Shown here: positions 7,129 through 47,664 of the stretch, one piece after another
How positions within the stretch are numbered: the stretch's first letter is position 1
How the letters are laid out: every line of letters starts with the position of its first letter
Source of the DNA: Candidatus Shapirobacteria bacterium
GTDB taxonomy: Bacteria > Patescibacteriota > Microgenomatia > UBA12405
Direction of reading: 5' to 3'
Assembly: GCA_028704885.1 (NCBI GenBank)
Contig: JAQWEN010000001.1
Location: forward strand, 222,679-286,678
DNA length: 64,000 bases
The notes under the pieces: model-generated
Databases searched by the model: none
Told to the model about the DNA's origin: nothing
What the model saw: only the letters and a program-made list of their open reading frames with translations
Translations under genes and position numbers: made by a program

Positions 7129-7698
7129 ATGAGAAAAATAGTGATTTATCCGGCAGAAATTTTAAGACAAAGGACTGAAGAAATTAAAAATGTCGATAAA
7201 AAATTACTGGAAGAAATTGAAGATTTAAAAAAGATATTACAAAATGGCGATAATGCAGCGGGTTTAGCGGCGCCACAAATTGGAGTAAATAAAAGATTTT
7301 TTGGAGGTAAGGAGATTGGCAAGGGAAATGTTGGGGTTTTTATTAATCCTAGAATTGAAAAAGTTTACGGAGAAAAAGTCTATCCAAAATTAATTGACGA
7401 AAATAAAAAAGAAGAAGATTTTCTGGAAGGGTGTTTGTCTTTTCCGGGGTTTTTTGGAACGGTAAAAAGATTTTTGAAAATAGATGTGTCTTGGGATGAG
7501 ATTGGATCTCAGATCTCAAATTTCAGATTTCAGAGAAAAAAGAAGACTCTTAGTGGTTTTGAGGCGATAGTTTTCCAACATGAACTGGATCATTTAGAAG
7601 GAATTGTGTTTATTGATCATATTAAAGAAGAAAAAGGAAAATTTTTCAAAGATATTGGCGGGGAAATGGAAAAGTGGAGTTTAGAGATTTTTGAGTAA
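7129..7698 (+). CDS. def: peptide deformylase
   Basis: Motifs GLAAPQIG, EGCLSFPG and HELDHLEG (the three PDF motifs). Contains an in-frame insertion of about 9 aa (GSQISNFRFQ) encoded by a TCAGAT-NTCAG repeat. Confidence 0.9.
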   Translation: MRKIVIYPAEILRQRTEEIKNVDKKLLEEIEDLKKILQNGDNAAGLAAPQIGVNKRFFGGKEIGKGNVGVFINPRIEKVYGEKVYPKLIDENKKEEDFLEGCLSFPGFFGTVKRFLKIDVSWDEIGSQISNFRFQRKKKTLSGFEAIVFQHELDHLEGIVFIDHIKEEKGKFFKDIGGEMEKWSLEIFE

Positions 7699-9687
7699 TT
7701 TTTCAGCTTCGGTGTTGGTGGGATAGGAATAATCAACGGTTTTTTGGAGATTTTCTTTAGCTAACTTAGTTTCTTTTTGGTCTAGATAAATTTTACCTAA
7801 GGCAAAATAGGTATAATCATAATTTGGTTTTAATTCGATGGCTTTTTGATAGTAGGGAATAGCCTCTTTTTTCAAATTGGCGGTTTCTAAGAATTGACCA
7901 ATAGAATAATAAATTTTAGCGTCAGTGGGGGCTAGAAGACTGGCTTTGGTGAGGGCAGTAATAGATTCAGAAAAATATTTAGAATCGACTCCGGAAAGAT
8001 AAAGATAAGTTTGGGCACGTTGTTTCCAAAAATTAATATTGGCTGGAGATGTTTGAATAGTTAAATCGGAATATTTAACAGCTTGATCAACATCATCTTG
8101 GTTTTCGCTGTTTAAAGCGATTTTGGAATAAATGGTAGCCAGTTTGTCAGTATACAAAGGTTCTTTGGGGTTAAATTTATGGCTAGTTTGGGCATAAATT
8201 AGAGCGTTTTGATAGTTATTTATAGAATCATAATTTTCAGCTTTGGCAAAAGTAATGTCGGCTAAATAAAAAAGAATTGTTTTGATAGTAAGAAAAAGGC
8301 TAAGAATAAAAATTGGAATAAACAAAAAGGTTTTGGGTTTTTTTAATGGAGAAATTTTTTGATCTTGATTTAAAAGAGCGGGGAGAAGAAAGAAAAAGAG
8401 GGAAGTTATGACGACTGAAAAACCAGCGGAATTAGTAATTAGAATTGATAGATAACTGGCTAAAATTGGGAGAGTTAAATTTGAAATTTTTAATTTGAAA
8501 TTTTTAATCAAATAAAACAAAACAGAAATGATTATAAAACAATAGGCAGTAAAACCGACAGCGCCGGTGGTGGCGAGGTAATTAATGTATTCGTTGTGGG
8601 CTTTGTTGTAGAGATAATCCCACTCAGAGGTGAGATTGTGTTCGATTGGGCGAGTCCAATAATAGGAGTAAGCAAAAGTTTCGACTCCGGTACCAAAAAC
8701 AGGAAATTTTTTCCAAAGATCGATGGCGCCAGTCCAAACAATTTTGCGAATATCACCGGAAGAGGTAATTAAAATTTTTGATGGTTGAATATTATCTTCT
8801 AATATTATTGGTGAAATATGTTTGGTCTTTATAAAAGAAGTAAAACTATCTTTGATAGGGTTGTTTATAAAAATAGATAAAATTAGAATTAAGCCCACCA
8901 TCCCAATTAATTGGGATACCTCTACCCCTTTTGGGGTATCTATGGATCTTGACAGGGAGGCTTTACTTTTAATTTTGGAAAAAAAATAAATGGCAAAATA
9001 AATGGCGAGGGAAATGAGGCAGGCGATGATTCCTGATTTTGATTTGGTAAATAATAAAGACAAATAAAAACTGGAAGTAAGAAATAAGAAGTATGATTTA
9101 TGAATAAAACTTTTAGATTCCAGAAATTTAAAAATTGAAAAAGGAATAAGAATACAAAGATAAGCGGCGAGCCAATTTGGTTGACCAAGGGTGGAAAAAA
9201 CTCGGGATTGAACATCTTGAACCCACCAATTTTTATCGATACCAAAATGTTGAGCTATGGCATAAATGGAAATTAGAAAGCCGGATAAAAGAGAAAAATT
9301 AATAATTTGGGTTTTAAAATCGGAATTAATATAGACGGATAGGATTAGATATAAAATTGAGTAGCAAATTAAAGATAAAAGACCGCCATTAAGACGGGAA
9401 TAATAACCAAAAAAGGAAGTGTGAGGATCGATGGAATAAACAGTAGAAATGATTTGAGAAAGTAAAAATAAAGCTAAAGGAATGTTTAAAAAATTTTTTT
9501 TGATTAGAGGAACTTGTTTTTGAATGACATTTATTAAATGAAAAGTAGTTATCAAAATAGTTAACAAATAAACAAAATACATTTTAGGAAGTTCAAAAAG
9601 TTCGGAATTAGATTGAGTAAAAATAATAGGGGTTAAAAATAAGAGGGCCAAAAAAAGAAAGCGAACTGGTTTAACAAAAGACTTCAT
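7681..9687 (-). CDS. Wzy_C (O-antigen ligase / O-oligosaccharyltransferase-like) polytopic membrane protein with C-terminal TPR repeats
   Basis: More than 10 TM helices, a Wzy_C-like loop (GQPNWLAAYLCILIPF ... HNEYINYLATTG) and C-terminal TPR motifs (AIPYYQKAIELKPNYDYTYFALGKIY). Contains the in-frame repeat peptide IKNFKLKISNL. Confidence 0.6.
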   Translation of the reverse strand: MKSFVKPVRFLFLALLFLTPIIFTQSNSELFELPKMYFVYLLTILITTFHLINVIQKQVPLIKKNFLNIPLALFLLSQIISTVYSIDPHTSFFGYYSRLNGGLLSLICYSILYLILSVYINSDFKTQIINFSLLSGFLISIYAIAQHFGIDKNWWVQDVQSRVFSTLGQPNWLAAYLCILIPFSIFKFLESKSFIHKSYFLFLTSSFYLSLLFTKSKSGIIACLISLAIYFAIYFFSKIKSKASLSRSIDTPKGVEVSQLIGMVGLILILSIFINNPIKDSFTSFIKTKHISPIILEDNIQPSKILITSSGDIRKIVWTGAIDLWKKFPVFGTGVETFAYSYYWTRPIEHNLTSEWDYLYNKAHNEYINYLATTGAVGFTAYCFIIISVLFYLIKNFKLKISNLTLPILASYLSILITNSAGFSVVITSLFFFLLPALLNQDQKISPLKKPKTFLFIPIFILSLFLTIKTILFYLADITFAKAENYDSINNYQNALIYAQTSHKFNPKEPLYTDKLATIYSKIALNSENQDDVDQAVKYSDLTIQTSPANINFWKQRAQTYLYLSGVDSKYFSESITALTKASLLAPTDAKIYYSIGQFLETANLKKEAIPYYQKAIELKPNYDYTYFALGKIYLDQKETKLAKENLQKTVDYSYPTNTEAEKLLKNL

Positions 9688-9732
9688 AGTCTATATTGTA
9701 ACTTAAGAGGCCTAACTTGTTATAATTTTAGA

Positions 9733-10845
9733 GTGATTAAGTTTGGATTATTAAAAAATAAAATTAAAAATTTCTTTGGGCTTTTTTCGTGGGAAATAGG
9801 AGTTGATCTGGGAAGTAATAATACTTTGATTTATTTAAAAGATAGAGGAGTGATTATTGATGAACCGACAATGATTGCCCGCCAGAAAAAAAAGAGATGG
9901 ACAGGATTATCAGCACCAAAATCAAAAAAAAGTGGTCCAATTGCTTTCGGTTTTAAAGCCAAAGAAATGTTAAATCGAGAGCCAAAGCAAATTGAAGTAG
10001 TTTCACCAATTAAAAATGGAGTAATTTCCGATCTTGAGGCCTTGGAAAGTTTAATTTCCTATTATCTAAAATTAGTTTATGAAATTCCGTCTAAATATCC
10101 TAAAATTTTTAAGCCGAGAGTAATAGTTGGAGTGCCAAGTACAATTAATCAGGTACAAAAAAGAGCAGTAAAGTCAGTTTTTTTGAACGCAGGAGCAAAG
10201 GAAGTTATTCTTTTGGAGGAAGTAGTTTTGGCGGCGATTGGAATTGGTTTACCGGTTAATAGTTCATCTGGTTTAGTAATTGTTGATGTAGGTGGAGGAA
10301 AAACGGAAGTCAGTGTGATTTCAATGGGAGGAGTGGTGGTTGGTCGAGGAATCAAAACGGCGGGAAACGATTTAGATAACAGCATTATTAATTACGTCAA
10401 AATGAAATATGGAATTTTAATTGGTCCAAATAGTGCTGAAAGAATAAAAATGGAGGTGGGAAATTTAAATAAAGATGGGGACAAAAAAACAGCTTTGGTT
10501 AGAGGAAGAGATTTGGAAAGCGGTTTGCCAAAAACAGTGAAAATTACTGAAGATGAAGTCCGAGAAGCTATGGCAATGGAATTAACAAAAATAGTTAAGC
10601 TGGTAGCAACGGTTTTAGATGAAACACCACCAGAATTAATGGAAGATATTTTAAAAAGAGGAATTGTAATTGTAGGTAATGGAGGAAAAATAAGTGGACT
10701 AGCGTCTTTAATTGAAGCGGAAACGAAAATATTTACTAAGGTGTTGGATGAAGCAGGAATGATGATAATTAGAGGCTGTGGTGAATTAATTCAAAATAGA
10801 GAAATTTTAAAGCAAGTTAAATTGGTGTCAGGATTAAAAGAATGA
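9733..10845 (+). CDS. mreB: rod-shape determining actin homolog MreB
   Basis: Actin-fold phosphate 1 and 2 motifs (IGVDLGSNNTLIY; IVDVGGGKTEVSVIS) and an MreB-type connect region. The stop TGA overlaps the mrdA ATG. Confidence 0.85.
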   Translation: MIKFGLLKNKIKNFFGLFSWEIGVDLGSNNTLIYLKDRGVIIDEPTMIARQKKKRWTGLSAPKSKKSGPIAFGFKAKEMLNREPKQIEVVSPIKNGVISDLEALESLISYYLKLVYEIPSKYPKIFKPRVIVGVPSTINQVQKRAVKSVFLNAGAKEVILLEEVVLAAIGIGLPVNSSSGLVIVDVGGGKTEVSVISMGGVVVGRGIKTAGNDLDNSIINYVKMKYGILIGPNSAERIKMEVGNLNKDGDKKTALVRGRDLESGLPKTVKITEDEVREAMAMELTKIVKLVATVLDETPPELMEDILKRGIVIVGNGGKISGLASLIEAETKIFTKVLDEAGMMIIRGCGELIQNREILKQVKLVSGLKE

Positions 10846-12491
10846 ATCAAGTAGATGATAGTTCTTGGAAATATTGGTTAATGAAATTTGGTCTAATACT
10901 AAGTTTAGGAATTATTTTAGTGTCAATTTTTAAGTTGAGTGTGATTAAGGGAACTTATTATAAAAATTTAGCCATGGAAAATAAATTAATGGAAAAAAAG
11001 ATTCCGGCAGCCAGAGCAGTAATAAAAGACAGAAAAGGAAGAATAGTAGCAAAAAGTGTTTATCAATATTTTAGAATGGATGGAGAAAATAAAATTTATG
11101 AAGGTGTGGGTGATTTTCAGGGATATAAATTTGAAGGGGAAAATTTGGCTTATGAACTTAAAAGATCATATCCTTATGGAGAATCGATGTCTTTTATAAC
11201 TGGTTATGTGGGAAAAGTTAATCAAGATGATAAAAGTAGAAATGAATGTGGAATAAAATTGGATGATGATGAAGTCATAGGAAGGAGCGGAGTGGAATCT
11301 TTTTTAGATTGTCAATTAAGAGGGGTTGACGGAAGAAGATTAGTGGAAGTTGATGCCAAGGGAAAATATGTTAGAGAGTTGGGCCGACAAGAACCAAAAG
11401 TGTCACCAGATTTAAATTTATCAATAGATGCTTATTGGCAAGATAAAATTTACAAATTACTGGATGGTAAAAAGGCGGTAGTAATAATTAGTGAACCAAA
11501 AACTGGAAAAATAATAAGTTTAGTTTCTAGTCCTGCTTTTAACGCTAATGATTTTTCTTATGATGCAAATTCGGCAAAAATTAAAGAATATTTAAACGAT
11601 AATGAAAATTTACCAATGATGAATAGATCAATTTCGGGAAGATACAGTCCAGGATCAGTATTTAAAATTGTAATTTCGACGGCTGGATTGGAAAGTGGAG
11701 TAATAAACAAAGATAGTCTAATTGAAGATACTGGAATTATAAAAGTAGGGGATTATTCTTATTCAAATTGGTTATGGTCAAAAAGTGGGACAACTGATGG
11801 AATGGTTAATGTGGTTAAGGCAATTCAAAGATCAAATGATATCTTTTTTTATAAATTAGGGGAAATGTTAGGATTGGAAAGAATAGATACTTGGGCTAAA
11901 AAATATGGTTATGGAAAAAAAACCGGAGTGGAATTGGCAGGGGAATTGGATGGAATTGTGCCAGATGAAAAATGGAAAAAAGAAGTTAAAGGAGAAAATT
12001 GGTATTTGGGAGATACTTATCATTTATCAATAGGACAGGGAGGTTTGAGTATTACTCCTTTGCAAGTTAACCAAATGACAAATATTATTGCCAATAAAGG
12101 AGTTAAGTGTAAAATGAGTATTTTGAAAGATAGTAAGGTGGAATGCGAGGATTTGAAGATTAAAAAAGAAAATGTGGAATTAGTGGTTCAAGGAATGAAA
12201 AATGCTTGTAAAACCGGAGGAACGGCCTGGCCATTGTTTAATTTTAAAACTGAAATTGCCTGTAAAACTGGGACGGCTGAAGTAGGGGACGGGAGTAAAG
12301 ATACTCAGGCGTGGTTGACGGCTTTTGCGCCAGCGGATGATCCGCAGATTTCAATTACAGTCTTAGTCGAAAGAGGTGGAGAAGGATCTGATGTGGCGGC
12401 GCCAATTGTAGGAGATATATTAAAGGAATGGTTTGAAGAACCAAATACAGTGGTGCCAAGAAAAGCAGATAAAAAAATTATTTCTGAATAA
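10842..12491 (+). CDS. mrdA: penicillin-binding protein 2-type transpeptidase
   Basis: SxxK (SPGSVFK), SxN and KTG (KTGTAE) motifs, an N-terminal TM anchor, and a position directly downstream of mreB. Confidence 0.8.
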   Translation: MNQVDDSSWKYWLMKFGLILSLGIILVSIFKLSVIKGTYYKNLAMENKLMEKKIPAARAVIKDRKGRIVAKSVYQYFRMDGENKIYEGVGDFQGYKFEGENLAYELKRSYPYGESMSFITGYVGKVNQDDKSRNECGIKLDDDEVIGRSGVESFLDCQLRGVDGRRLVEVDAKGKYVRELGRQEPKVSPDLNLSIDAYWQDKIYKLLDGKKAVVIISEPKTGKIISLVSSPAFNANDFSYDANSAKIKEYLNDNENLPMMNRSISGRYSPGSVFKIVISTAGLESGVINKDSLIEDTGIIKVGDYSYSNWLWSKSGTTDGMVNVVKAIQRSNDIFFYKLGEMLGLERIDTWAKKYGYGKKTGVELAGELDGIVPDEKWKKEVKGENWYLGDTYHLSIGQGGLSITPLQVNQMTNIIANKGVKCKMSILKDSKVECEDLKIKKENVELVVQGMKNACKTGGTAWPLFNFKTEIACKTGTAEVGDGSKDTQAWLTAFAPADDPQISITVLVERGGEGSDVAAPIVGDILKEWFEEPNTVVPRKADKKIISE

Positions 12492-12542
12492 ATAATTTGA
12501 CAGTGATGATATGATGTTGTCATATAAAAATTATTCATTAAA

Positions 12543-12830
12543 ATGAATATGAGTTTTGAAACAATTAAAGATAATATTCAGGGTTATATCGAAACTAGAA
12601 AAGAATTAAAAAATTCAAAAAATTTGATTGATAAAAGTGAAGGTCTTGTTTCTATGAGAGTCTATAATAATTCTTCATCTAATTTACAGGGCAGACAATT
12701 TGGTCCAATGGGTTATTATGAGAATGAAATGGATGCTATTAGAAGAGAAATAAAAAAGGGTGATAGAGTAGTAGTTTCAGGGGAAAAAGGTATAGTAACA
12801 ATTTTAAATAGAAATAATAAAAGTAATTAA
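12543..12830 (+). CDS. hypothetical small protein
   Basis: 95-aa ORF with no recognisable motif, sitting between mrdA and topA in the same orientation. Confidence 0.3.
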   Translation: MNMSFETIKDNIQGYIETRKELKNSKNLIDKSEGLVSMRVYNNSSSNLQGRQFGPMGYYENEMDAIRREIKKGDRVVVSGEKGIVTILNRNNKSN

Positions 12831-12858
12831 TTTGTGGTTGACAGAGTGTCGGTAATAG

Positions 12859-14853
12859 ATGACAATGAAAGATAAAATGAAGAAACTATTAATTGTAGAG
12901 TCACCAACTAAGGCCAGAACTATTGGAAAATATTTAGGTAATGACTTTAAAGTATTGGCAACCGTAGGACATATTCGTGATTTGCCGACTAATAAAATGG
13001 CAGTTGATTTGAAGAATTTTACAGTGGAATATGTAATTGATGCTAAAAAGAAAAAGGTGGTTGATGAATTAGTAAAAGCTTCAAAAAGTGCTGATCAAAT
13101 ATTTTTAGCCTCCGATCCTGATCGTGAAGGAGAAGCAATTTCTTGGCATGTAAATTGGATTTTATTAAATGCCAAAAAACCGGTTAAAAAAGAAATAATT
13201 TCTCGAGTAACTTTTCATGAAATTACTAAAGAAGCAGTGGAAGAAGCAATAAAAAATTCTCGAGAGATTGATATGAATTTGGTTCAAGCCCAACAAGGGA
13301 GAAGAGTTTTGGATAGAGTGGTGGGTTACAGTTTGTCGCCACTTTTGTGGAAAAAAGTTAGACGGGGATTATCGGCTGGACGGGTGCAATCAGTGGCGGT
13401 AAGACTTATTTGTGAAAGAGAAAAGGAAATAGAAGCCTTTAAAAGAGAAAAATATTTCTCAATTTATAGTGAATTACAAAAAAATGGAGAAAAATTTAAC
13501 GCTGAATTAATTAAAGTTGATGGGAAAAATATTTATAAAACTGACAAGATAAAACTGTTTGATGGAGAATATTCTTACACTACTTCCTGCTTTAAGACAC
13601 AATCTGATGCTGATAGATATATTAAAAATGTAGAAAAAGACTTTTTGATAACTAAAATTTCTGGTAAGGAAGTTCATAGATTGCCATTACCAGCATTTAC
13701 AACTTCAAAGTTACAACAAGCCGCATCAAGAAAAATGGGTTGGTCGGGTAAACAAACAATGAGCGTGGCCCAAAAACTTTATGAAAAAGGTTTGATTACT
13801 TATCATAGAACTGATTCGGTTTATTTATCGGAAAAATCAATCTTGGAATTTAGAAAATATATCGGAGAAAAATTTGGAGAAAATTATGTGGTCCCAAAAA
13901 TTAGATTTTATAAAAATACCTCAAAAAATGCTCAGGAGGCTCATGAGGCAATAAGACCGACAAATGTCTCAAGACCAGTCATTGATGATGGCGATGTTAG
14001 AGAAAATAAATTGTATGAAATGATCTGGAAAAGGGCAGTAGCGACTCAAGCAGCAGCGGCAGTAATGAAAAATACAACTATATTATTTGCCAATGGCAAT
14101 GGGACATTTGAATCAAAAGGAGTAATAATGTTGTTCGATGGATTCTTAAAAATTACTGGTGATAAACATGAAGATCAAGTGTTGCCAGAACTTAATGAAA
14201 ATGAAAAAATTAATGGTAAAAAAAATTGGTCGGTGGAGTCAGAAACTAATCCAATGCCAAGATATAGTGATGCTAGTTTGGTGTCGTCTTTAGAAAAACA
14301 AGGAATTGGTAGACCATCAACTTATGCACCAATTATTTCAACTATTTTATTAAGACAATACGTGGAAAGAGAAGAAGGCCGATTTAGACCGACGGTTTTA
14401 GGTCAGGCAACTAATGAATTTTTAGTTAAGAATTTTGCTAATGTTTTATCTTTGCCTTTTACAGCAGAAATGGAAGAGGATTTGGATAAAATTGCCTTGA
14501 ATAAAATTGAGTGGGAAGAAATGATGAAGACATTTTGGAAACAATTTGAAAAGGAATTGAAGTTGGCCGAAAGCGGAAGCGAGAGGGTTAAAGTGGAAGC
14601 CGAAAAAACCGGCGAAAAATGCCCGCAATGTGGAGAAGGTGAATTAGTAATTAGACTGGGAAGGTTTGGAAAGTTTATTTCTTGTGATCGCTTTCCAGAT
14701 TGTAAATATACTCGACCATTTCAAGAAGCAGCAGGATTTAAATGTCCAGAATGTGGAGCTGAAGGAGTGGTTCGTAAAACTAAAACCGGGAGAAAATTTT
14801 TTGGCTGCTCTAAATATCCGGTTTGTAAGTGGGCGGGTTGGAAAAAACCTTAA
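12859..14853 (+). CDS. topA: DNA topoisomerase I
   Basis: Toprim start LLIVESPTKARTIGKYLG, a catalytic-Tyr region and C-terminal C4 zinc ribbons (CPQCGEG ... CDRFPDC; CPECGA ... CSKYPVC). Confidence 0.9.
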   Translation: MTMKDKMKKLLIVESPTKARTIGKYLGNDFKVLATVGHIRDLPTNKMAVDLKNFTVEYVIDAKKKKVVDELVKASKSADQIFLASDPDREGEAISWHVNWILLNAKKPVKKEIISRVTFHEITKEAVEEAIKNSREIDMNLVQAQQGRRVLDRVVGYSLSPLLWKKVRRGLSAGRVQSVAVRLICEREKEIEAFKREKYFSIYSELQKNGEKFNAELIKVDGKNIYKTDKIKLFDGEYSYTTSCFKTQSDADRYIKNVEKDFLITKISGKEVHRLPLPAFTTSKLQQAASRKMGWSGKQTMSVAQKLYEKGLITYHRTDSVYLSEKSILEFRKYIGEKFGENYVVPKIRFYKNTSKNAQEAHEAIRPTNVSRPVIDDGDVRENKLYEMIWKRAVATQAAAAVMKNTTILFANGNGTFESKGVIMLFDGFLKITGDKHEDQVLPELNENEKINGKKNWSVESETNPMPRYSDASLVSSLEKQGIGRPSTYAPIISTILLRQYVEREEGRFRPTVLGQATNEFLVKNFANVLSLPFTAEMEEDLDKIALNKIEWEEMMKTFWKQFEKELKLAESGSERVKVEAEKTGEKCPQCGEGELVIRLGRFGKFISCDRFPDCKYTRPFQEAAGFKCPECGAEGVVRKTKTGRKFFGCSKYPVCKWAGWKKP

Positions 14854-18536: not shown

Positions 18537-18587
18537 TAGATTTCAGACTATCAGTCTGTTAGATCTCAGTTAAAATTTAAATTAAAT

Positions 18588-19046: not shown

Positions 19047-19079
19047 TCCTTCGACGTTGCTCAGGATAAAAATTGTCTA

Positions 19080-19108
19080 AAAACCCTCCGGAATTTCGGA
19101 GGGTTTTT
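19080..19108 (+). terminator. rho-independent terminator after tsf
   Basis: A GC stem CCCTCCG / CGGAGGG with a 6-nt loop, followed by TTTTT. Confidence 0.6.
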
Positions 19109-19164
19109 GATTGACATTTAATTAATAAGTTTTATTATTTTTTTAGCATTACTATTTTTTAATT

Positions 19165-21479: not shown

Positions 21480-21570
21480 AATCAGCTGATTTTCAGGTGT
21501 TTTTGGAACTGATACGTTGACATGGTTTTTTAAAAGTGCTTTACTTTTCTATAAGATATTTTTTATAAAA

Positions 21571-27979: not shown

Positions 27980-27987
27980 GGTATAAT
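27980..27987 (+). promoter_or_regulatory. -10 element GGTATAAT upstream of ybaB
   Basis: GAGGTATAAT lies 31 nt upstream of the ybaB ATG and is a member of the recurring motif. Confidence 0.25.
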
Positions 27988-28018
27988 AATTAAAAATTAA
28001 TAATTAAGAATTAATAAT

Positions 28019-28267
28019 ATGTTTGATAAAGCAAAAATGTTAGCCCAAGCTTATAAATTGAAGAAGGCGATCGAGGCCGAATCTTTTGAGATTGAAGAAA
28101 ATGGAGTAAAAGTAACCGTGACTGGTGATCAAAAAATTAAATTTTTGTCGGTTAATGGAATGGAAAATAAAGTTTTGGTAGATACTATTAATAAGGCGAT
28201 GAAAAAATCTCAAGAAATGGCAGCTAAAAGAATGAAGGATATGGGTGGGCTTGAAGGATTATTTTAA
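28019..28267 (+). CDS. ybaB: nucleoid-associated protein YbaB/EbfC
   Basis: MFDKAKMLAQAYKLKKAIEAE ... VTVTGDQKIKFLSVNG; the conserved dnaX-ybaB-recR arrangement. Confidence 0.8.
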   Translation: MFDKAKMLAQAYKLKKAIEAESFEIEENGVKVTVTGDQKIKFLSVNGMENKVLVDTINKAMKKSQEMAAKRMKDMGGLEGLF

Positions 28268-31600: not shown

Positions 31601-31852
31601 ATGATTAAGAAAAGCAAAAAAGATAATATATTAGCAGCAAAAAGAAGAGGCCGAGAAAAGGGTTGTTCTTATTGCAAAACTAATACAACTCCAAATTGGC
31701 AGGAATATGAAAAAATGGGTGAATTCTTATCAGCTAGATCAAGAATTTTAGGAGCTCAGTTTAGTGGAGTTTGTGCCAAACACCAAAGAAAATTGGTTAA
31801 AGCAATTAAGCAAGCTAGACATTTGGCTTTGATGCCTTTTACAACCCAATAA
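31601..31852 (+). CDS. rpsR: 30S ribosomal protein S18
   Basis: CSYCKTN ... FLSARSRILGAQFSGVCAKHQRKLVKAIKQARHLALMPF matches the S18 family. Confidence 0.85.
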   Translation: MIKKSKKDNILAAKRRGREKGCSYCKTNTTPNWQEYEKMGEFLSARSRILGAQFSGVCAKHQRKLVKAIKQARHLALMPFTTQ

Positions 31853-31875
31853 AGGCTAATTTTGTATTTAAATTA

Positions 31876-31905
31876 AAGACCCTCCGAAATTTCGGAGGGT
31901 CTTTT
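31876..31905 (+). terminator. rho-independent terminator after rpsR
   Basis: GACCCTCCG-AAATTT-CGGAGGGTC followed by TTTT. The stem sequence is nearly identical to the tsf terminator. Confidence 0.6.
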
Positions 31906-34904: not shown

Positions 34905-35628
34905 TTTTATTTTCTTCTTCTGGTTGGTCAAGGACGGTGAGTTCGAGAAATAAATCGTCTAAATTACCCTGCATAATGCTGTCCAAGTTATTAAATGTTT
35001 TGTCGATTCTATGGTCTTTTATTTGATTTCTGGGGTAATTATATGTTCGGATTTTATCGGCACGAGTTGATTGACTGATATTGGCACGACCAGCAGAGAC
35101 TTGAGAGGCGCGTTTTTCTTCTTCCAACTGATAAAGTTTGTTTTTAAGTAATTCAAGAGCAATTTCTCGATTTTGTTGTTGATAACGTTCGGTGCGGACA
35201 TCAAACATTAAACCAGTGGGTTTATGAACTAAATGAATGGCAGTGGAAACTTTATTAACATTTTGACCACCATTACCGCCAGCGCGACAGGCGGTGATGG
35301 TAACATCTTCCATTCTAAAATTGACCTCTTTAGAGTCGATTTTAGGCATGACAGCGATTGAAGCGGTAGAAGTTTGAATACGGCCTCTTTTTTCAGTTTC
35401 TGGAATACGTTGAACACGATGAGTGCCAGCTTCGTATTTTAATTGATTATAAGCATCAAAGCCGGTTATTTGGATGATAAAGCCGTCGATTTGACGGACT
35501 TTCCAACCAACTTTATTAGCATAGCGGATATACATGTTCATTAAATCTTGGGCCCAAAGAGTTGCCTCTTGGCCGCCAGGACCGGGGTGAAATTCCATAA
35601 TGGCAATGTTGTTGTTGATATTAGGCAT
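34897..35628 (-). CDS. prfA: class I peptide chain release factor, RF1 type (PET tripeptide, GGQ), lacking N-terminal domain 1
   Basis: [23 protein letters not shown] aligns to the RF1 domain 2 start (AGTGGDEAALFAGDLFRMY). It has [14 protein letters not shown] (PxT), GGQ (GGNGGQNVN) and DHRIDKT. An in-frame stop lies 58 nt upstream and rpmE is the upstream neighbour. Confidence 0.7.
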
Positions 35629-35716
35629 AATTTTAAATTTAAAATTTTTAATTTTTAATAAAATGTAATAAAAAAACCGCCAAATTTACAAGAAATTAAA
35701 GCGGTTTTTAGAGTAG

Positions 35717-39363: not shown

Positions 39364-39386
39364 AAGTTGATGATAGAATTGAAGAT

Positions 39387-39969: not shown

Positions 39970-39975
39970 ATAAAT

Positions 39976-41286: not shown

Positions 41287-41320
41287 TTTTTAATTTTAGG
41301 TTATAATAAGATTACTTTTA

Positions 41321-41403
41321 GCCGAAGTGGTGGAATGGTAGACACGCACGCCTCAAGAGCGTGTGGCAGCAATGTCATGGGGGTTCAAGTCCCTCCTTCG
41401 GCA
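41321..41403 (+). tRNA. tRNA-Leu (anticodon CAA)
   Basis: GCCGAAGTGGTGGAATGGTAGACACGCACGCCTCAAGAGCGTGTGGCAGCAATGTCATGGGGGTTCAAGTCCCTCCTTCGGCA. Anticodon loop CTCAAGA, long variable arm. A TATAAT sits 13 nt upstream (41302-41307). Confidence 0.8.
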
Positions 41404-41504
41404 CAAATTTAGATTGAAACAAAAAAGAAAAAATAATTTATTTTTTCGGCTCGTAAAATATTTTCAATAATCTTACATTGATTTTTAAAATGTTAAAATA
41501 AGTT

Positions 41505-42170
41505 ATGAGTTTGGGAATATTAAGAATTGTTGGAATAATACTTTTTGTTTATTTAACTTGGAGAAATTTAAAAAATAATTACGAAGAAGATAAAATCGTA
41601 AACTACTCATGGATAGCTTTGTTAGGTTTTTTTGTTGTGGGCAGAATCACTTATGGTTTAGTTAATTTTGGGATTTGGAATGATAGTTGGTTAAGCTGGT
41701 TTTCGGTTTGGAATAAACCAGGAATGGATTATATTGGTGGTTTTTTAGCCTTAATTTTGATTAATTTTATTTTTTCAAAAATAAACAGTTGGAAATTTAT
41801 ACCATTTTGTGAAGATGGATTAGTTAACTCTTTGTTCTTTTTGGTTTTTTTAATAGCGGATGAATTTTTAAGAAGTAAATTTGACTTGAAAACAGGAGTT
41901 TATTTATTATTTTTAGTCTTAATGATACTTTTGGCCAATTTAGCTAAGAAAAAATATCGATCGTTAGTGTGGTATAAGAGTGGAAAGAAAGGTTTTGCTT
42001 TTTTAATAACTGGATTTTTTGCTTTTTTAATATTAGGATTTTTAGGGCTTTATTTTAAAATTAATTTGCCTTATTTAATTTTATATTGGCTTATTAGTTT
42101 GATTTCTTTGACAGGATTGTGTATTTTAGGTGAAGTATTTAATTTTTTAGTGATTAACAAAAGGAGATAA
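41505..42170 (+). CDS. hypothetical polytopic membrane protein
   Basis: 221 aa with about 6 predicted TM helices; no motif recognised. Confidence 0.35.
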   Translation: MSLGILRIVGIILFVYLTWRNLKNNYEEDKIVNYSWIALLGFFVVGRITYGLVNFGIWNDSWLSWFSVWNKPGMDYIGGFLALILINFIFSKINSWKFIPFCEDGLVNSLFFLVFLIADEFLRSKFDLKTGVYLLFLVLMILLANLAKKKYRSLVWYKSGKKGFAFLITGFFAFLILGFLGLYFKINLPYLILYWLISLISLTGLCILGEVFNFLVINKRR

Positions 42171-42171
42171 T

Positions 42172-42549
42172 ATGAAAAAGAAAACAGGGAATTTAAGTTT
42201 ACCAGGTAGATTACTATCGCCAATTAAAGTTTTTTTGGAGAAAGAATTGGTTCTTCTTAAAAGAAGAAAAAAACAATTGAAAAAAAATGATCCGTTTTTT
42301 GCTGAAAATAGAGCCAATGAAAATTCTTTTGAAGAGGATTTAGATGAACAGATTGGCCATTTCGATAACGAGGTTAAGGCAAAATTTTTAAGTAAAGAGA
42401 TAGTCCAATTTAGAACAGCCTTAACTCGAATGAAAATAGGTAAATACGGCATCTGTGAAAAGTGTGGAAAGATGATTGATACTGATAGATTGGCAGTTCA
42501 GCCGGAGGCAACTATGTGTATTAAGTGTAGTAAAAAAAGTGAAGAATAG
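42172..42549 (+). CDS. DksA/TraR-family C4 zinc-finger protein
   Basis: C-terminal CEKCGKMIDTDRLAVQPEATMCIKC (CxxC-17-CxxC) preceded by a coiled-coil region. Confidence 0.55.
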   Translation: MKKKTGNLSLPGRLLSPIKVFLEKELVLLKRRKKQLKKNDPFFAENRANENSFEEDLDEQIGHFDNEVKAKFLSKEIVQFRTALTRMKIGKYGICEKCGKMIDTDRLAVQPEATMCIKCSKKSEE

Positions 42550-42846
42550 TTGATATTTATGGTTAAAAACTATGGTATAAGTTTTGGAATAAATGGGGTA
42601 TTTTTTATTGTATTGAGTATATTTTTTGTTCTATTATTTTTGTTTTTAAGTATAAAGAAAGGAAAGGGCTATTGGTTAATTTTTATGGGGGGTTTAGCCA
42701 ATTTAATTGAGAGGATTGTTTTGGGATATGTAAGAGATTATTGGAATTTTTTAGGATTGGGACTTTACAATAATATTAATGATTGGATAATTGGAATAGG
42801 AGTTTTATTTTGTTTAAGCGATTTATTATGGAAGAAATCAAAATAG
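42550..42846 (+). CDS. lspA: lipoprotein signal peptidase II (LspA), N-terminally truncated (98 aa, TTG start)
   Basis: NYGISFG aligns to NxGAAFS and GGLANLIERIVLGYVRDYW to GGALGNLxDRxxxGxVVDF. The catalytic Asp contexts VRDYWNF and NINDW are present, but the first TM helix (about 45 aa) is missing and an in-frame TAG lies immediately upstream. Confidence 0.5.
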   Translation: MIFMVKNYGISFGINGVFFIVLSIFFVLLFLFLSIKKGKGYWLIFMGGLANLIERIVLGYVRDYWNFLGLGLYNNINDWIIGIGVLFCLSDLLWKKSK

Positions 42847-43502
42847 TTTTTGAAGACAAAGATCTAATGATAGTTGAAAAACCACCATTGATGACAACAA
42901 CTAAAGAAAAAAAGGAAGAAAAAGGAACATTGGAAGATTATTTACGGGAAATTAGGCCAAATAATTTACCGAGAAATGGAATTCTGCATAGGTTAGACAA
43001 GGGGACTTCTGGTTTAATAATAGTGGCTAAGACAGAAGAGGCATTTTTAAACCTTAAGAAACAATTCAAAGAGAGATCTTTAATGAAAAAGTATTATTGT
43101 TTGGTCGGCGGAGATAGTTCTTTTGAAGGAACAATAGATATGCCAATTGCTAGATCAAAATATGTTTTTGCTAAATTTGGAGTAAACGAAGATGGGAAGA
43201 GAGCATTGACAAATTTTAATTTGATTAAAAAATATCGTAAAGATGGAAAGATTTATAGTTTATTAGATATTGATTTAAAAACTGGAAGGACACACCAGAT
43301 TAGAGTTCATTTAAGTCATTTAAGATGGCCTTTGGTAGGTGATAGAGTTTATGGAGGTGAGAGTGTTGATGGTTTAAAAAGACCATTTTTGCATGCTTAT
43401 AAAATAATTTTTAAACATCCAATTAATGGTCAAAAAATGGAATTTAAAATAGATTTACCGAAAGATTTAAGTGAAATTTTGAAAAAATATGAGGAATACT
43501 AG
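42828..43502 (+). CDS. rluD: RluA-family pseudouridine synthase (RluD-like)
   Basis: Catalytic Asp motif HRLDKGTSGLIIVAKT and HQIRVHL. The ATG at 42828 is preferred over the track start at 42783, which overlaps lspA. The conserved lspA-rluD linkage supports this. Confidence 0.75.
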   Translation: MEEIKIVFEDKDLMIVEKPPLMTTTKEKKEEKGTLEDYLREIRPNNLPRNGILHRLDKGTSGLIIVAKTEEAFLNLKKQFKERSLMKKYYCLVGGDSSFEGTIDMPIARSKYVFAKFGVNEDGKRALTNFNLIKKYRKDGKIYSLLDIDLKTGRTHQIRVHLSHLRWPLVGDRVYGGESVDGLKRPFLHAYKIIFKHPINGQKMEFKIDLPKDLSEILKKYEEY

Positions 43503-44316
43503 AATAAAAAAAAAGATAAATCTAAAATTGTTTTTTGGAGTAATTTTGTTGTTATTTTTGACGTTTTTAGTGTTATTAAGTTTCTTTAAAAAAGACAATA
43601 GTGATAAAAATTTAGACTACAAATTGGGAATAATTGCAAATGATGGAATTACTTTGGTGTCAATATCTAATGAAAGAAAAATGATTAATGTTTTAAATTT
43701 AGGGGAAGAATCTTCGGAAGAATTTAAAAGAATTGTAGGAAAAGAAAATAATATAGATTTAATTAAACATATTTATTGGTATAACTTTGGATTTTATCCA
43801 GATAAAATTTTGAATTTAAATTCAACTAGTCAATGGAAAAATAATGATGTTTTGATTGAAAATTTAGGTTTTTTAAATTGGATTAGATATAAAAAAGATT
43901 ATGGAAAAATGCTTTTAAAACAGGAGAAAATAAATGGTTTATTAAATGAAAATAGATTGATTTTGGATGAAATACTGGTTCGTGATTTTTCAGAAAGTAA
44001 ATTAAATAATGAAGAGTTAAGACTGTCTATTTTTAATAATACAAACGAAAGTGGTTTAGCTGGTTTTATAACAAAAAGATTAGAATGGTCGGGATTTTCG
44101 GTAGTTTCGAATGATAATGATACTCAAAAAATAAATAATTGTTTGATTGTTTATGGTAATAAAGTTGATCAAAATTATGGTTGGAAGTTGATAAATAAAA
44201 TTTTTAATTGTGATAAAAAATTTGATGAAAATTTAAATGAAAATGAATTGGAACTATATTTTGGTGATAATTTTGCTTCAGTGATAAAATACTCAAGCTA
44301 TACAATTAATAATTAA
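43489..44316 (+). CDS. membrane-anchored LytR_C-domain protein
   Basis: N-terminal TM, then a C-terminal LRLSIFNNTNESGLAGFITKRLEWSGFSVVSND that fits the LytR C-terminal domain pattern. Confidence 0.4.
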   Translation: MRNTRIKKKINLKLFFGVILLLFLTFLVLLSFFKKDNSDKNLDYKLGIIANDGITLVSISNERKMINVLNLGEESSEEFKRIVGKENNIDLIKHIYWYNFGFYPDKILNLNSTSQWKNNDVLIENLGFLNWIRYKKDYGKMLLKQEKINGLLNENRLILDEILVRDFSESKLNNEELRLSIFNNTNESGLAGFITKRLEWSGFSVVSNDNDTQKINNCLIVYGNKVDQNYGWKLINKIFNCDKKFDENLNENELELYFGDNFASVIKYSSYTINN

Positions 44317-44350
44317 AAATTAATAATTAAAAATTAATAATTAAGAATTT

Positions 44351-45073
44351 ATGTCAGGTCATTCCAAATGGTCAAATATTAAAAACCGAAAAGGGGCTCA
44401 AGATAAAAAAAGAAGTGAGTCGTTTACGAGAACTTCAAGAGATATTTTAACTGCAATTAGACTTGGAGGGGGAATTACTAATCCGGAGGCTAATTTAGGT
44501 CTTAAAATTGCAATCGAAAAAGCGAGAGAGGTTAATATGCCAAAGGAAAATGTTGATAGATTATTGACTCGATTTGAAGAAAGAAAGGTAAATTTAGTGG
44601 CAATGACAATGGAGGGTTATGGTCCTTTTGGAGTGCCGATGATTATAGAATTGGAAACCGATAATAAAAATAGAACATTAGGAGAGATTAAACTTATTTT
44701 TAGAAATTATGGCGGTAATTTAGGTGAAAGTAATTCGGTTATGTTCCAATTTAAGAGAGTGGGAGAAGTGGAAATATCAGGTTTATCAGATATCAGTTCG
44801 TCAGATCTCAGTTTGGAATTGATTGATGCGGGGGCGGTTGATTTTGATGGAAATATTATTTTAACAGAACCGAATGGTCTAAATGAAATGGTTAAAAAAG
44901 TTGAGGAGATGGGATTAAAAATAGAAAGATCGGAATTGTCGATGAGGGCTAATAATCCGATCATGTTAAGTTCAGAGGATGAAGTAGGTAAAATTTTAGA
45001 TATGATCGAAGAATTAGAAGAAAACGATGATGTTATAAATGTTTTTGCAGGATTCGATTATAAAAAGGTATAA
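44351..45073 (+). CDS. yebC: YebC/PmpR-family transcriptional regulator
   Basis: MSGHSKWSNIKNRKGAQDKKRSESFTRTSRDI is the YebC family signature. Contains an in-frame repeat-encoded insert GLSDISSSDLS. Confidence 0.85.
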   Translation: MSGHSKWSNIKNRKGAQDKKRSESFTRTSRDILTAIRLGGGITNPEANLGLKIAIEKAREVNMPKENVDRLLTRFEERKVNLVAMTMEGYGPFGVPMIIELETDNKNRTLGEIKLIFRNYGGNLGESNSVMFQFKRVGEVEISGLSDISSSDLSLELIDAGAVDFDGNIILTEPNGLNEMVKKVEEMGLKIERSELSMRANNPIMLSSEDEVGKILDMIEELEENDDVINVFAGFDYKKV

Positions 45074-45074
45074 T
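45067..45074 (+). promoter_or_regulatory. -10 element GGTATAAT, 6 nt upstream of the ATG at 45081
   Basis: AAAAGGTATAATTTATCA-ATG; this supports 45081 as the true start of the downstream membrane protein. Confidence 0.3.
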
Positions 45075-45080
45075 TTATCA

Positions 45081-45863
45081 ATGTCAAAAAGACTTAGATA
45101 TTTAATATCATCGATTTTAGCTACAATTGGTTTTTATTTTTTTTTAAGTTTACCCTATGAATCTCATTATTATGGTTTATTAGTGGGAATAGTTTTAATT
45201 ATTTTTTGTTTTTGGTTTGGATTGGGGATTGTCTTTGATAAAAGTATTTATATTCGATTAATGTCGATAGTAATGCCAGGAGCTTTTTTTATAGGATTTG
45301 CTTTATTTGCAACATTGTTACCCCAGACTTTTTTATTAAGTTTAATTTATAGCTTATTTTTTGGAATCATAATTTATGCGATGTTTCTGGTGGAAAATGT
45401 TTTTTTGGTAGCAATTGGATTTAGAACACCACCGCTTTATCGGGCGGCATATACAGTGGGATTAATTTTATTATTATTGACTTCTTTTTTCTTATTCGAC
45501 AGTCTTTTTTCTTTTAAATTTATTTATTGGTTGAACATATTGTCAGTTTTTGTGATTTCGATAATAATTTTTTTATATATATTTTTTAGCGTAACAATAG
45601 AATTACCCGACGATGGAAAAAATAAAAATGTTTGGTATTATGTTTTGATTCCGTCAATTTTAATGTCAGAAATGGCCTTAGTTTTAAGTTTTTTACCAGT
45701 TGGCATTTTTAAAGGTTCTATTTATTTAGTGATGATAGTTTATATTTTTGGAGGGTTATTACACGCTGAATTAAGAGATAGATTGTTTAAGAGAACTTGG
45801 TTGGTTTTTATTTGGGTAGGCGTGGCTACAATTTTAGGAATTATTATTACTGGATTGAGGTAA
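45081..45863 (+). CDS. hypothetical polytopic membrane protein
   Basis: About 8 TM helices. The start is placed at MSKRLRYL because of the promoter position; the track start at 45039 overlaps yebC. Confidence 0.4.
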   Translation: MSKRLRYLISSILATIGFYFFLSLPYESHYYGLLVGIVLIIFCFWFGLGIVFDKSIYIRLMSIVMPGAFFIGFALFATLLPQTFLLSLIYSLFFGIIIYAMFLVENVFLVAIGFRTPPLYRAAYTVGLILLLLTSFFLFDSLFSFKFIYWLNILSVFVISIIIFLYIFFSVTIELPDDGKNKNVWYYVLIPSILMSEMALVLSFLPVGIFKGSIYLVMIVYIFGGLLHAELRDRLFKRTWLVFIWVGVATILGIIITGLR

Positions 45864-46785
45864 TGGCAACAGTGGTGACAATATCCTGAACATTACAGCC
45901 GCGAGAAAGATCATTAATAGGTTTTCTGATACCTTGGGTAAGAGGCCCGTAAGCGTTGGCATTAGCAATTCTTTCAACTAATTTATAGGCAATGTTGCCG
46001 GAATTTAAATCGGGAAAAATTAGAATATTAGCTTGACCGCCAATACAATTACCAGGGAATTTACGATCGCAAATATGAGGAACTAAAGCAGCATCGCCTT
46101 GAAGTTCACCTTCGACAATTAAATCTGGTTGTTTTTGACGAATTAGGATAGTAGCCTCTCTGATTTTGTCGATAAACTCACCTTTGGCACTGTTGTTGGT
46201 GGAATAAGAAAGCATGGCGATTAGAGGAGTTTTTTGGGTGAGAAGTTTGAAACTAGCGGCGGTTTGAATGGCAATTTCCGATAAATCTTCTGCGGTTGGA
46301 TTAACATTTAAACCACAATCAGCAAAAAACAACAGTCCTTCTTCACCCAAACTTAAGTTTTTGGTTTCCATAATGAAAAAACTAGAAACTAATTTGGAAT
46401 CTTTGGCAGTTTTAATAATTTGAAGAGCAGGTCGAACGGTTTCAAGGGTGGTATGTTTGGCTCCGGCAACCATACCGTCGGCTAAACCAAGATGAACCAT
46501 TAAAGTGCCAAAATAAATAGGGTCTTTAACTAATTTATTAGCTTCGTCGATAGTCATAGCTTTTTCTTTTCTGAGTTCGAAAAGAGTTTGAGTTAATTGA
46601 TCAGCAAGAGTGGAAGTTTCCGGATTAATGTCACCATTTTTACCCAGAACTATGAGTTCAGCAATTTTTTGATCGCGAATGATTTTGGCAGCTTCAATAA
46701 CTCGATCATCGTCGCCTTCAGCCAAAATGATTTTTTTATAATTAATCTTGGCTTGGCTATAAATATTTTCAATAATAGGATTCAT
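45847..46785 (-). CDS. pta: phosphate acetyltransferase (phosphotransacetylase)
   Basis: PTA_PTB family: ILAEGDDDRVIEAAKII ... SGNIAYKL ... Length 312 aa. Confidence 0.85.
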   Translation of the reverse strand: MNPIIENIYSQAKINYKKIILAEGDDDRVIEAAKIIRDQKIAELIVLGKNGDINPETSTLADQLTQTLFELRKEKAMTIDEANKLVKDPIYFGTLMVHLGLADGMVAGAKHTTLETVRPALQIIKTAKDSKLVSSFFIMETKNLSLGEEGLLFFADCGLNVNPTAEDLSEIAIQTAASFKLLTQKTPLIAMLSYSTNNSAKGEFIDKIREATILIRQKQPDLIVEGELQGDAALVPHICDRKFPGNCIGGQANILIFPDLNSGNIAYKLVERIANANAYGPLTQGIRKPINDLSRGCNVQDIVTTVAITSIQ

Positions 46786-47664
46786 ATGGATAATCTATTT
46801 TAAGCTGAATCTATTTATATTCAATATATAAAATAATACCTTAAGATAGGCATATTATTAATATAGAAGGGGAATGCAGGGGAATTGGAGATCAGAATTT
46901 CGGTTTGTCAGATATCAGATTTCAGCTAAAACAAGACAATAATGAAGCTAAACTAATTAAATAAATTAAAGCTAAATTAGGTTCAAAAAAAGATAGTAGA
47001 CGAACAGGGCAGAGGGGAGTCCTATAATATACAACATCCTATAATATTTTCACGAATTATCCTATAGTTTTCACGGAGCAGGTGATACAGTGTGATATAG
47101 TCTCTGTGGAAAACTTGTATTCGGCCAAGTGTATCAAAATGAACTCATCAAGAGGGAGGAGTATGGGTTAATTAGACGTTAATTAATAATGAAGAATTAA
47201 TAATTAGATGAAAATATCAGAGGAGAGAGAAGAGTTTTAATTCCTATCTCCTAGCAGAAGGCGGTTCAATATGCTATGTCGCACAATGTATCTTTTGCGA
47301 CTCTATCTAAAGATTTAGGCAGGGGGAGTACCACTTTGGTGGATTAATTTTAAATTTTTAATTTACAATTTTTCTAACTTATTTTTATCTAATTATTCTT
47401 ATTTATTAATTATGGTTAAATTCCCCATTTGACTTCCCGGCTTATAAATTGTCTTATCAGTCTCAAATTCTAGGACTTGACTCCCCTATGCCTTTTTCGA
47501 ACAGGTGACTTTGATGTTTTTGCCTAAAGATAGGCAAATTGAACCTAAAACGTCACCAGAGGCCCTAGAAATGAAGATTGTATAATTGCCGATTACTTTT
47601 ACCTGTTGTTTATTAAATTAACTGTAAGGTCTTGGCAAAACTGACTATCATGATAAGATAGTTT

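Follow-up and report, generated by a model that had tools for sequence, protein, structure and literature searches.

The four TCAG modules

Four copies of a short TCAG-rich module, designated W1 to W4, were located in a 64-kb stretch (the window) of a Candidatus Shapirobacteria genome of 735 kb; the window together with related loci made up a search space of 565 kb. W1 (7504..7533, + strand) is a 30-nt array within def (7129..7698, + strand; peptide deformylase, PF01327), where it occupies codons G126-Q135. W2 (44774..44812, + strand) is a 39-nt module covering codons I142-S154 of yebC (44351..45073, + strand; YebC/PmpR family). The remaining copies lie in spacers: W3 (18537..18569, + strand) is a 33-nt module in the rpsB-tsf spacer, immediately 3' of the rpsB stop codon, and W4 (46888..46925, + strand), of 38 nt, lies between the divergently oriented pta and xerC. 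All four lie in the same orientation, on the leading strand and in the sense of the flanking genes. The TCAGAT-N-TCAG letters quoted in the initial annotation were found at each site, and the coordinates given here are refined versions.

W1 is composed of approximately 4.3 head-to-tail heptamers (GATCTCA GATCTCA AATTTCA GATTTCA G) and was called by TRF at 7505-7534 with period 7 and 4.3 copies. The 3' end of W4 carries three exact heptamer units (TCAGATA TCAGATT TCAG). W2 and W3 consist only partly of such units, with a mixed spacing of 7-9 nt: W2 has five TCAG spaced 7-9 nt apart and a 15-nt periodicity (TRF period 15), and W3 contains the shared 11-mer AGATCTCAGTT. At the module ends stand AGATYTCAG... 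and ...TCAGTT, in direct and not inverted orientation; when folded, W1, W2 and W4 show no end-to-end pairing of terminal inverted repeats. The RNA folding z-scores were +0.65 for W1, +1.12 for W2 and +0.73 for W4, and a mobile palindrome like the Rickettsia elements was not borne out, as these three copies are no more structured than shuffled controls. W3, with a z-score of -1.98, does contain the CAGAC-TATCA-GTCTG hairpin that had been described, a modest one.

Occupied and unoccupied sites in related genomes

Insertion polymorphism, which had been proposed from the window, was observed against close relatives in three forms: W3 is inserted, the def loop is empty in the relatives, and yebC sequence is replaced. 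Compared with L122, whose spacer is 15 nt long and whose flanks are ~96% identical, W3 is a clean 33-nt insertion, and it is also absent from L123/L124, L125 and L126. Its junctions relative to the unoccupied L122 site (TAAATAA on the left, TT(T)AAA on the right) show at most a 1-2-nt repeat or a loose GTTAAA repeat, and the flanks contain nothing of which W3 could be a tandem array. No clear target-site duplication was detected at the W3 junctions or at the coding copies.

W4 is preceded by a conserved AGGGGA(A/G)T box, and a conserved non-coding element of 620 nt begins ~85 nt downstream. Rfam searches returned only tRNAs at the gathering threshold and nothing credible around W4 at E<=10, and ARAGORN found no tmRNA. 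L002-L004 carry an orthologous array of 5-6 units (TTAGATC TCAGTTC TCAGATT TCAGATG TCAGTTT). An array beside the box is kept in the window and in L002, though the sequences differ; the W4 position is occupied by other sequence in L088, L089 and L095.

In def, the W1 peptide G126-SQISNFRF-Q135 stands where relatives have 18 nt (EKGKLV), and L127, L128 and L129 show this loop without the array. Protein alignment placed the net gain of four residues over the nearest orthologs exactly at this point, in agreement with the greater length of Def that had been noted. The array was identical in the independent assembly L001 (SRR22315502), which represents one extra sample. A phase-variable simple-sequence contingency locus, in which repeat number would differ between close strains and switch the frame, is not supported, given this identity in the one extra sample, the essential nature of the gene and the in-frame reading.

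In yebC, the W2 peptide I142-SGLSDISSSDL-S154 corresponds to one of three forms of the YebC loop (form C), which is also present in L002-L004 and L005. Relative to L086, W2 is a local replacement of ~33 nt with a gain of 9 nt, between flanks ~92% identical; the window and L086 are 91-98% identical over 4.7 kb save for two dips in yebC, one of them exactly at W2. The protein is accordingly three residues longer than its nearest orthologs, as had been claimed, and the alignment puts the difference exactly there. The orthologs of L002 and L005 share both the peptide and the nucleotide motif, so that the refuting condition set in the initial annotation, a common peptide lacking nucleotide similarity, does not hold.

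A 9-aa indel at the N-terminus is combined with the loop forms A, B and C in all six possible ways, in patterns discordant with relatedness at the flanking genes. yebC is therefore a mosaic gene among Shapirobacteria, and the occurrence of the yebC copy in three lineages is better explained by recombination in this mosaic gene than by repeated insertion. A test for an excess of synonymous conservation within W2 gave no significant result, the codon divergence among three genomes being that of the gene background; hence W2 is an old copy and offers no evidence that the module moved recently. On the same test, nucleotide-level constraint or a very recent transfer of the yebC copy was dropped as an explanation.

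Both coding copies are in frame, as had been noted, and lie in surface loops of the predicted structures: the W1 segment forms the tip of a beta-hairpin between strands 117-125 and 134-142 of Def (AlphaFold), and the W2 segment a predicted strand-helix loop of YebC (143-152). They replace 18-33 nt of resident sequence and are not simple insertions. These loops are hotspots of insertion and deletion with other independent inserts; as a parallel case, an 18-nt palindrome, GATTCTGC-NNN-GCAGAAT, occupies the same Def and YebC loops in other genomes. A TCTGC-AAA-GCAGA palindrome in topA of L125 proved to be native (KSAKQI vs KSADQI), with no insertion.

Relatedness and origin of the modules

W1 to W4 are related to one another. 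They form a genuine family at the nucleotide level, as the initial annotation had claimed, with copies in coding and spacer DNA. In a search of both strands of the whole window, the best matches of each element were other elements, reciprocally. The best match of W3 was W2 (~84% identical), with an alignment score of 17.5 that was reached by none of 150 shuffles; the W2-W4 score of 14.5-15 was reached by 4-5 of 150 (p ~0.03). The similarity of W1 and W4 within the window was at the chance level given by shuffles. Because the kinship of W1 to the window's own copies is at this level, its membership depends on the L002 array at the spacer orthologous to W4, with which it shares 26 of 29 positions without gaps (score 21.5, shuffle maximum 15.5, z ~9.6). 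When W1 and the L002 spacer array were left out of the training set of an nhmmer profile, these two ranked top among the non-training matches, and the profile of the module found no further copies in the 565 kb of window and related loci. The shared motif is read as SQISNFRFQ in def and, in a different frame, as SDISSSDLS in yebC, and it is also present in non-coding DNA. W3 is recent, yet its identity to W2 is only ~84%, and W1 is nearer to the L002 version of W4 than to the W4 of the window, so the window copies are probably not direct parents of each other. Additional copies are presumably present elsewhere in the 735-kb genome.

The motif TCAGATNTCAG has five exact matches at three loci of the 64-kb window, every one on the + strand, where shuffles predict 0.08, a frequency well above chance; W3 contains it as one-mismatch versions. 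It is absent from the sampled loci of most other Shapirobacteria and has two matches in 1.28 Mb of unrelated bacteria, a negative control made up of contigs of other phyla with YebC relatives of 35-43% identity, among the matches listed. On the other hand, one-mismatch variants are not clearly enriched in the window (15 vs 9.5 expected), TCAG-N2-TCAG is as enriched as TCAG-N3-TCAG, and many 10-11-mers of the window reach three loci with p ~1e-6. Motif counting after a post-hoc choice of pattern is therefore feeble support, and the alignment-based tests are stronger. The over-represented 8-mer GTAGGGGA is unrelated and mostly reflects a V-G-D coding string.

We give about an even chance to the explanation that W1-W4 represent a small, lineage-restricted copy-and-paste family retained only at permissive sites. 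Modules of ~30-40 nt, non-palindromic and built of TCAG(A/T)(T)N heptamer units, would be carried to new chromosomal sites and would survive only where they are harmless. Spacers would tolerate any length (W3, W4), and within genes the survivors would be frame-keeping copies in solvent-exposed loops (W1, W2). The translated peptide would be filler with no motif of its own, a view taken because def and yebC read the module in different frames. Ordinary homologous recombination would then pass gene alleles bearing a module among related Shapirobacteria, and the patchy distribution of the yebC copy would follow from it. The copying step is most likely a short templated insertion or ectopic short-patch conversion, helped by microhomology in the AT-rich, GAAAT-like left flanks, since the coding copies replace resident sequence and hallmarks of transposons are lacking.

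A bolder form of this explanation is quite unlikely in our judgement. Here Shapirobacteria would possess a hitherto undescribed copy-and-paste route for modules of ~18-40 nt, copied from single-stranded DNA or a transcript in one orientation, overwriting GAAAT-like sites and repeatedly remodelling the same surface loops of essential proteins. Such a route would account for the presence of two unrelated module families in exactly the same Def and YebC loops of different genomes, for the replacement of resident codons, and for a source-like array next to the conserved 620-nt candidate non-coding RNA.

The modules could instead be a functional strand-specific cis signal, either an array for an oligomeric RNA- or DNA-binding protein reading (C/U)AG every 7 nt or a signal of the uptake or segregation type that biased recombination has spread. 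The signal would then be the reason why copies are retained or driven, with the peptides as a tolerated by-product. HutP, for instance, reads UAG-N4 repeats. NAG does recur every 7 nt in W1, W4 and the L002 array, and the orthologous spacer of L089, with a different heptamer array, still has TAG/TGG at that interval. The single strand in the sense of transcription, the conserved place of the array beside the AGGGGA(A/G)T box despite its different sequences, a motif-bearing yebC allele common to divergent lineages, as molecular drive predicts, and the absence of transposon hallmarks all fit such a signal. However, four modules per 64 kb is far below the density of known uptake signals, the sampled loci of most relatives have none, and close relatives function without W1, W2 and W3; one-mismatch versions show no clear enrichment, W2 lacks excess synonymous conservation, and there is no candidate binding protein. 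We therefore regard a signal as unlikely.

A common origin would be unnecessary if each locus had arisen by independent local slippage or tandem duplication, the likeness being due to chance and low complexity. Arrays with periods of 7 and 14 nt are abundant in the window, W1 and W2 are themselves repetitive, with periods of 7 and 15 nt, the counting statistics are unremarkable once corrected for post-hoc choice, and W1 and W4 resemble each other within the window only at chance level. This explanation has little chance of being right, as the W2-W3 similarity and that of W1 to the L002 array are well above shuffles, the unoccupied sites hold no TCAG that could have seeded slippage, and W3 is not a tandem copy of its flanking sequence.

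There is also a slim chance that the modules are classical non-autonomous transposable elements of the MITE/RPE type, moved by a trans-acting transposase whose gene lies in another part of the genome. The copies are dispersed, differ in presence between genomes and lie in frame in conserved genes, as is reported for Rickettsia RPEs and, in PMC5896051 and PMC10969869, for Coxiella MITEs. However, W1, W2 and W4 lack terminal inverted repeats or a stable hairpin, target-site duplications are not clear, 30-40 nt is smaller than known MITEs and RPEs, the coding copies replace instead of inserting, no transposase was found in the 64-kb window, and copies are few (four loci, none more in 565 kb).

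Other candidate sources were rejected. The window contains no transposase or reverse transcriptase, Pfam annotation included. Two scans of viral contigs gave chance matches or none, and a match from the same metagenome as L003 was to an unrelated GC-rich sequence. DGR-type retrohoming was discarded because the modules are too short and are not at target C-termini, and their copy differences are not adenine-specific. A sequencing or adapter artefact was ruled out, the def and yebC variants recurring in independent assemblies.

If modules are indeed copied around the chromosome, even the streamlined CPR genomes of ~0.7 Mb, in which few mobile elements can be recognised, would harbour a selfish or mutational process that adds new stretches of peptide to essential proteins. 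To our knowledge, such peptide-writing repeats have so far been documented mainly for Rickettsia and Coxiella. The process would provide a concrete origin for the lineage-specific insertions that are often seen in loops of CPR proteins, and insertion polymorphisms would mark recombination between co-occurring Shapirobacteria. The Def and YebC loop segments of this Shapirobacteria clade are not residue-by-residue homologous and should be masked in annotation and phylogenetics.

Comparison with known repeat systems

Rickettsia palindromic elements (RPEs) are palindromes of 100-150 bp, of which there are tens to hundreds of copies. They were reportedly described by Ogata et al. in 2000 as lying in frame inside conserved genes as well as between genes. 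The likeness to RPEs drawn in the initial annotation holds in part. Like them, the TCAG modules are short repeats found in intergenic DNA and in frame in housekeeping genes, at surface positions where a peptide is added without loss of function, and their presence varies between related genomes. The palindrome, the length and the pure insertion do not carry over: the modules have 30-40 nt, are built of direct heptamer units and are mostly unstructured; four were seen in the 64-kb window, and those in genes take the place of codons already there.

The short tandemly repeated repetitive (STRR) heptanucleotides of heterocystous cyanobacteria, which Mazel et al. are said to have reported in 1990, are likewise dispersed tandem 7-nt arrays, family-specific and lineage-restricted, and W1, W4 and the L002 array, with 3-6 heptamers, resemble them. 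STRRs differ in being mostly intergenic, in their high copy number and in their unit sequences, whereas two of the four TCAG loci are translated and W2/W3 are a 33-39-nt composite and not a pure heptamer array.

The uptake signals of Pasteurellaceae (USS) and Neisseria (DUS) occur about once per kb and in both orientations. In common with the TCAG modules they are short motifs of coding and non-coding DNA, read in any frame that fits poorly constrained protein segments, lack transposon hallmarks and have motif alleles common to lineages through recombination. The modules differ in their number (4 per 64 kb), their single strand and their absence from the sampled loci of most relatives.

MITEs typically exceed 100 bp and are bounded by terminal inverted repeats and target-site duplications; the TCAG modules show neither inverted ends nor clear duplications, nor this size. 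They are nevertheless comparable to bacterial MITEs inserted in ORFs, such as the Coxiella QMITEs (PMC5896051; review PMC10969869), as non-autonomous repeats that can be read in frame and alter proteins.

The TCAG module family in the window

The source is a metagenome-assembled genome of Candidatus Shapirobacteria (CPR/Microgenomates), on a contig of 735,491 nt. The window (GC content 0.33) carries the housekeeping genes fmt, def, mreB, a PBP, topA, a TrwB-like ATPase, rpsB, tsf, frr, dnaX, recR, cysS, ssb, hisS, dnaB, yebC, pta, xerC, gyrA and gyrB; neither a transposase nor a reverse transcriptase was found there. GC skew was very strong (+0.25 to +0.40) across 1-48 kb of the window and dropped to near 0 between 48 and 56 kb, in the part whose genes turn to the minus strand (gyrA, gyrB); since it never changes sign, no origin or terminus lies inside the window.

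Four modules are built of TCAG heptamers. W1, in def (7504-7533), consists of some 4.3 tandem heptamers and nothing else, and W4, in the pta/xerC spacer (46888-46925), ends in three exact heptamers, its ortholog in the related locus L002 having five to six. W2, in yebC (44774-44812), and W3, in the rpsB-tsf spacer (18537-18569), have in common a composite 33-nt module in which TCAGA(T/CT)ATCAG is followed by T(TC/CT)G and T(C/T)AGATCTCAG. The four repeat sequences quoted in the initial annotation were all present as given, and its claim of a nucleotide-level repeat within def and yebC held: the one motif is translated as S-Q-I-S-N-F-R-F-Q in def and, in a different frame, as S-D-I-S-S-S-D-L-S in yebC, so the likeness is one of DNA, not of peptide.

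The sequence TCAGATNTCAG had five matches at three loci of the window, in every case on the plus strand, against 0.08 expected, and W3 holds two one-mismatch versions. It was absent from all other related loci, and loci of unrelated bacteria, 1.28 Mb in total, gave only two matches. By themselves such counts are unconvincing, because the pattern was picked after looking and many other 10-11-mers are equally recurrent: unrelated ones at ≥3 loci of the window are many (nominal p ~1e-6), and over-representation was equal for TCAG-N2-TCAG and TCAG-N3-TCAG. An unbiased local-alignment scan of both strands was therefore run instead, with 150 dinucleotide shuffles as the null for scores. The best matches of W2, W3 and W4 were other elements. 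The W2-W3 score (17.5) was equalled in none of the 150 shuffles and the W2-W4 score (14.5-15) was reached in 4-5, while that of W1-W4 (13) was at chance level. W1 was identical, ungapped, at 26 of 29 bases to the L002 array in the spacer orthologous to that of W4, with a score of 21.5 where shuffles averaged 12.2 (sd 0.97) and peaked at 15.5, and the best window match of the L002 array was W1, above its ortholog W4. A profile made from W2, its two orthologs, W3 and W4 returned the L002 array and W1 as top non-training matches and no other copies in 565 kb. The TCAG module family is real but small, and the repeat observation is confirmed as a dispersed module family, though not as one with the structure of Rickettsia palindromic elements (RPEs).

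Module sites in related Shapirobacteria

At rpsB-tsf the closest relative, L122 (neighbouring protein 97% identical, nucleotide flanks ~96%), has a spacer of 15 nt; between matching flanks the window carries another 33 nt as a clean insertion, which is also missing in three further genomes. W3 was certainly written into a new place. In def, the window has 30 nt in place of the 18 nt of its relatives, which encode E-K-G-K-L-V. L127 and L128/L129 are unoccupied at this site; L129 shares its metagenome, and probably its genome, with L003 and L124. This loop is an insertion/deletion hotspot that also has other, independent inserts. W1 was probably written into a new place. These sites show that, in this lineage, members of a short-module family have come to be written at new positions.

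At yebC the closest relative is L086, which matches the window at 91-98% identity along 4.7 kb but for two local dips, both within yebC (44351-45073), where identity falls from ~93% to 58-62% only at a 9-aa N-terminal indel and at a loop. One dip coincides exactly with W2, the window having 9 additional nt and ~33 nt replaced. The loop with W2, form C, is shared by L002-L004 and by L005, a more distant genome, and all of these have the nucleotide motif as well; about 10 other Shapirobacteria lack form C and carry either form A (10 aa) or form B (14-15 aa). In the YebC alignment the N-terminal indel (GGGxTNxExNLGL versus G-VGLK) and the loop forms occurred in all six combinations, independently of relatedness at flanking genes. 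Hence yebC is a recombining mosaic among Shapirobacteria, and no repeated insertion is needed to account for the patchy distribution of W2. Codon divergence within W2 equals the gene background, which makes W2 old.

AlphaFold models built from alignments placed both coding modules in surface loops. In Def (pLDDT 86.7) W1, at residues 126-133, forms the predicted tip of the beta-hairpin made by strands 117-125 and 134-142, and in YebC (pLDDT 80.6) W2 falls in the loop 143-152 that links a strand to a helix. The proposed lengthening of both proteins at the repeats was borne out by the longer def site and the extra nucleotides of yebC relative to L086.

In the pta/xerC spacer the TCAG arrays follow a conserved AGGGGA(A/G)T box in both the window and L002. 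Different sequence stands at the W4 position in L088, L089 and L095; in L089 (~12250-12300) and L090 it is another heptamer array, TAGGATT TAGGTTA TGGATGG TAGATCG TGGGTTA, after the same AGGGGAGT box, with the period retained and the unit different. The spacer also contains a non-coding element of ~620 nt (window 47006-47640; L002 10650-11326; L089 12370-13083; also L088 and L095), with blocks of near-100% nucleotide identity in five Shapirobacteria genomes whose flanking proteins are merely 62-90% identical. Rfam gave no match for it, even at E<=10. RNAalifold predicted long-range helices, e.g. CAGAGGGGAGUC with GACUCCCCUAUG, a structure that is unproven because nearly all predicted pairs are invariant. 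The element carries three direct repeats, TCCTATA(A/G)T...TTTTCACG, and a DnaA-box-like TGTGGAAAA, and could be a new large non-coding RNA or a cis region at the DNA level.

Other repeats of the region and its relatives

An 18-nt palindrome, GATTCTGC-NNN-GCAGAAT, absent from the window, lies in frame in the same Def and YebC loops of other genomes. It folds into an 8-bp hairpin and is translated as D-S-A-x-Q-N (DSAKQN) in one frame and L-Q-S-R-I in another. In Def it occurs once in the loop of L130 (10379-10396), and in L125 (~21480-21520 and 21310) twice in the loop and once at the C-terminus; in L102 (9968), L087 (1882) and L088 (~9960) it is YebC form B. That two different short-module families use one pair of loops suggests a phenomenon general to the clade. 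The topA gene of L125 (12182-14168) was called as three consecutive ORFs, with frameshifts that are possibly long-read assembly errors, so indel-based arguments from this contig call for caution. In L126 a bAvd/23S_rRNA_IVP-family gene (DGR accessory protein; 12245-12607) adjoins the TrwB-like ATPase gene, and the window has no counterpart at that position.

Further repeats were observed in the window. The 8-9-mer (A)GTAGGGGA was over-represented, at six loci (11745, 12282, 21447 and, on the minus strand, 48815, 54040 and 55566) versus 0.1-0.3 expected; since its copies mostly encode the string V-G-D, the excess is probably codon and peptide bias and not a signal. Two near-identical, mutually inverted GC-rich hairpins, CCCTCCG-AAATT-TCGGAGGG, flanked by T/A runs on either side, lie downstream of tsf (19079-19117) and of an ORF ending at 31852 (31866-31904), and look like shared bidirectional terminators. 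AT-rich arrays of TAATAATTAAAAAT type, with periods of 7 and 14 nt, occur at many loci, on the plus strand (27984-28018, 44304-44349) and as the complement (6076-6108, 6805-6836, 8470-8508, 35628-35659, 47345-47376), and also in the rpsB-tsf spacer of L126. They often stand immediately 5' of start codons, oriented like the downstream gene (e.g. before the yebC ATG and the ATG at 28019), and could serve as a leader or in translation initiation, or else form a further heptamer repeat family.

Origin of the modules

The coding copies overwrite resident codons, which favours templated, conversion-like insertion over cut-and-paste transposition and points to the former as the process that may write the modules; they would be kept only at permissive sites. 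W3, although recent, is only ~84% identical to W2, and W1 is nearer to the L002 array than to W4, so the true donors are probably other copies outside the window.

A functional signal, either a strand-specific putative protein-binding array in which (C/U)AG recurs at 7-nt intervals or a signal driven by recombination, would explain both the single orientation of the copies and the array position kept beside the AGGGGA box; it is unlikely given that motif density is low, that close relatives lack the modules and that synonymous constraint is missing. Both the alignment statistics and the unoccupied sites, which have no TCAG seed, contradict pure chance plus slippage.

Judged by folding and by their ends, the modules are not RPEs or MITEs (small non-autonomous transposable elements). 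They have no terminal inverted repeats; W3 folded better than shuffled sequence (z -2.0), and W1, W2 and W4 did not. The interpretation in the initial annotation is thus supported in part: the repeats read in frame stood, and the parallel with RPEs held only partly. In agreement with its claim of novelty, no description of selfish short repeats read in frame was found for CPR in the literature searched. Written into new places by what may be templated insertion, the modules are a variant of the known selfish short repeats that are read through in frame.
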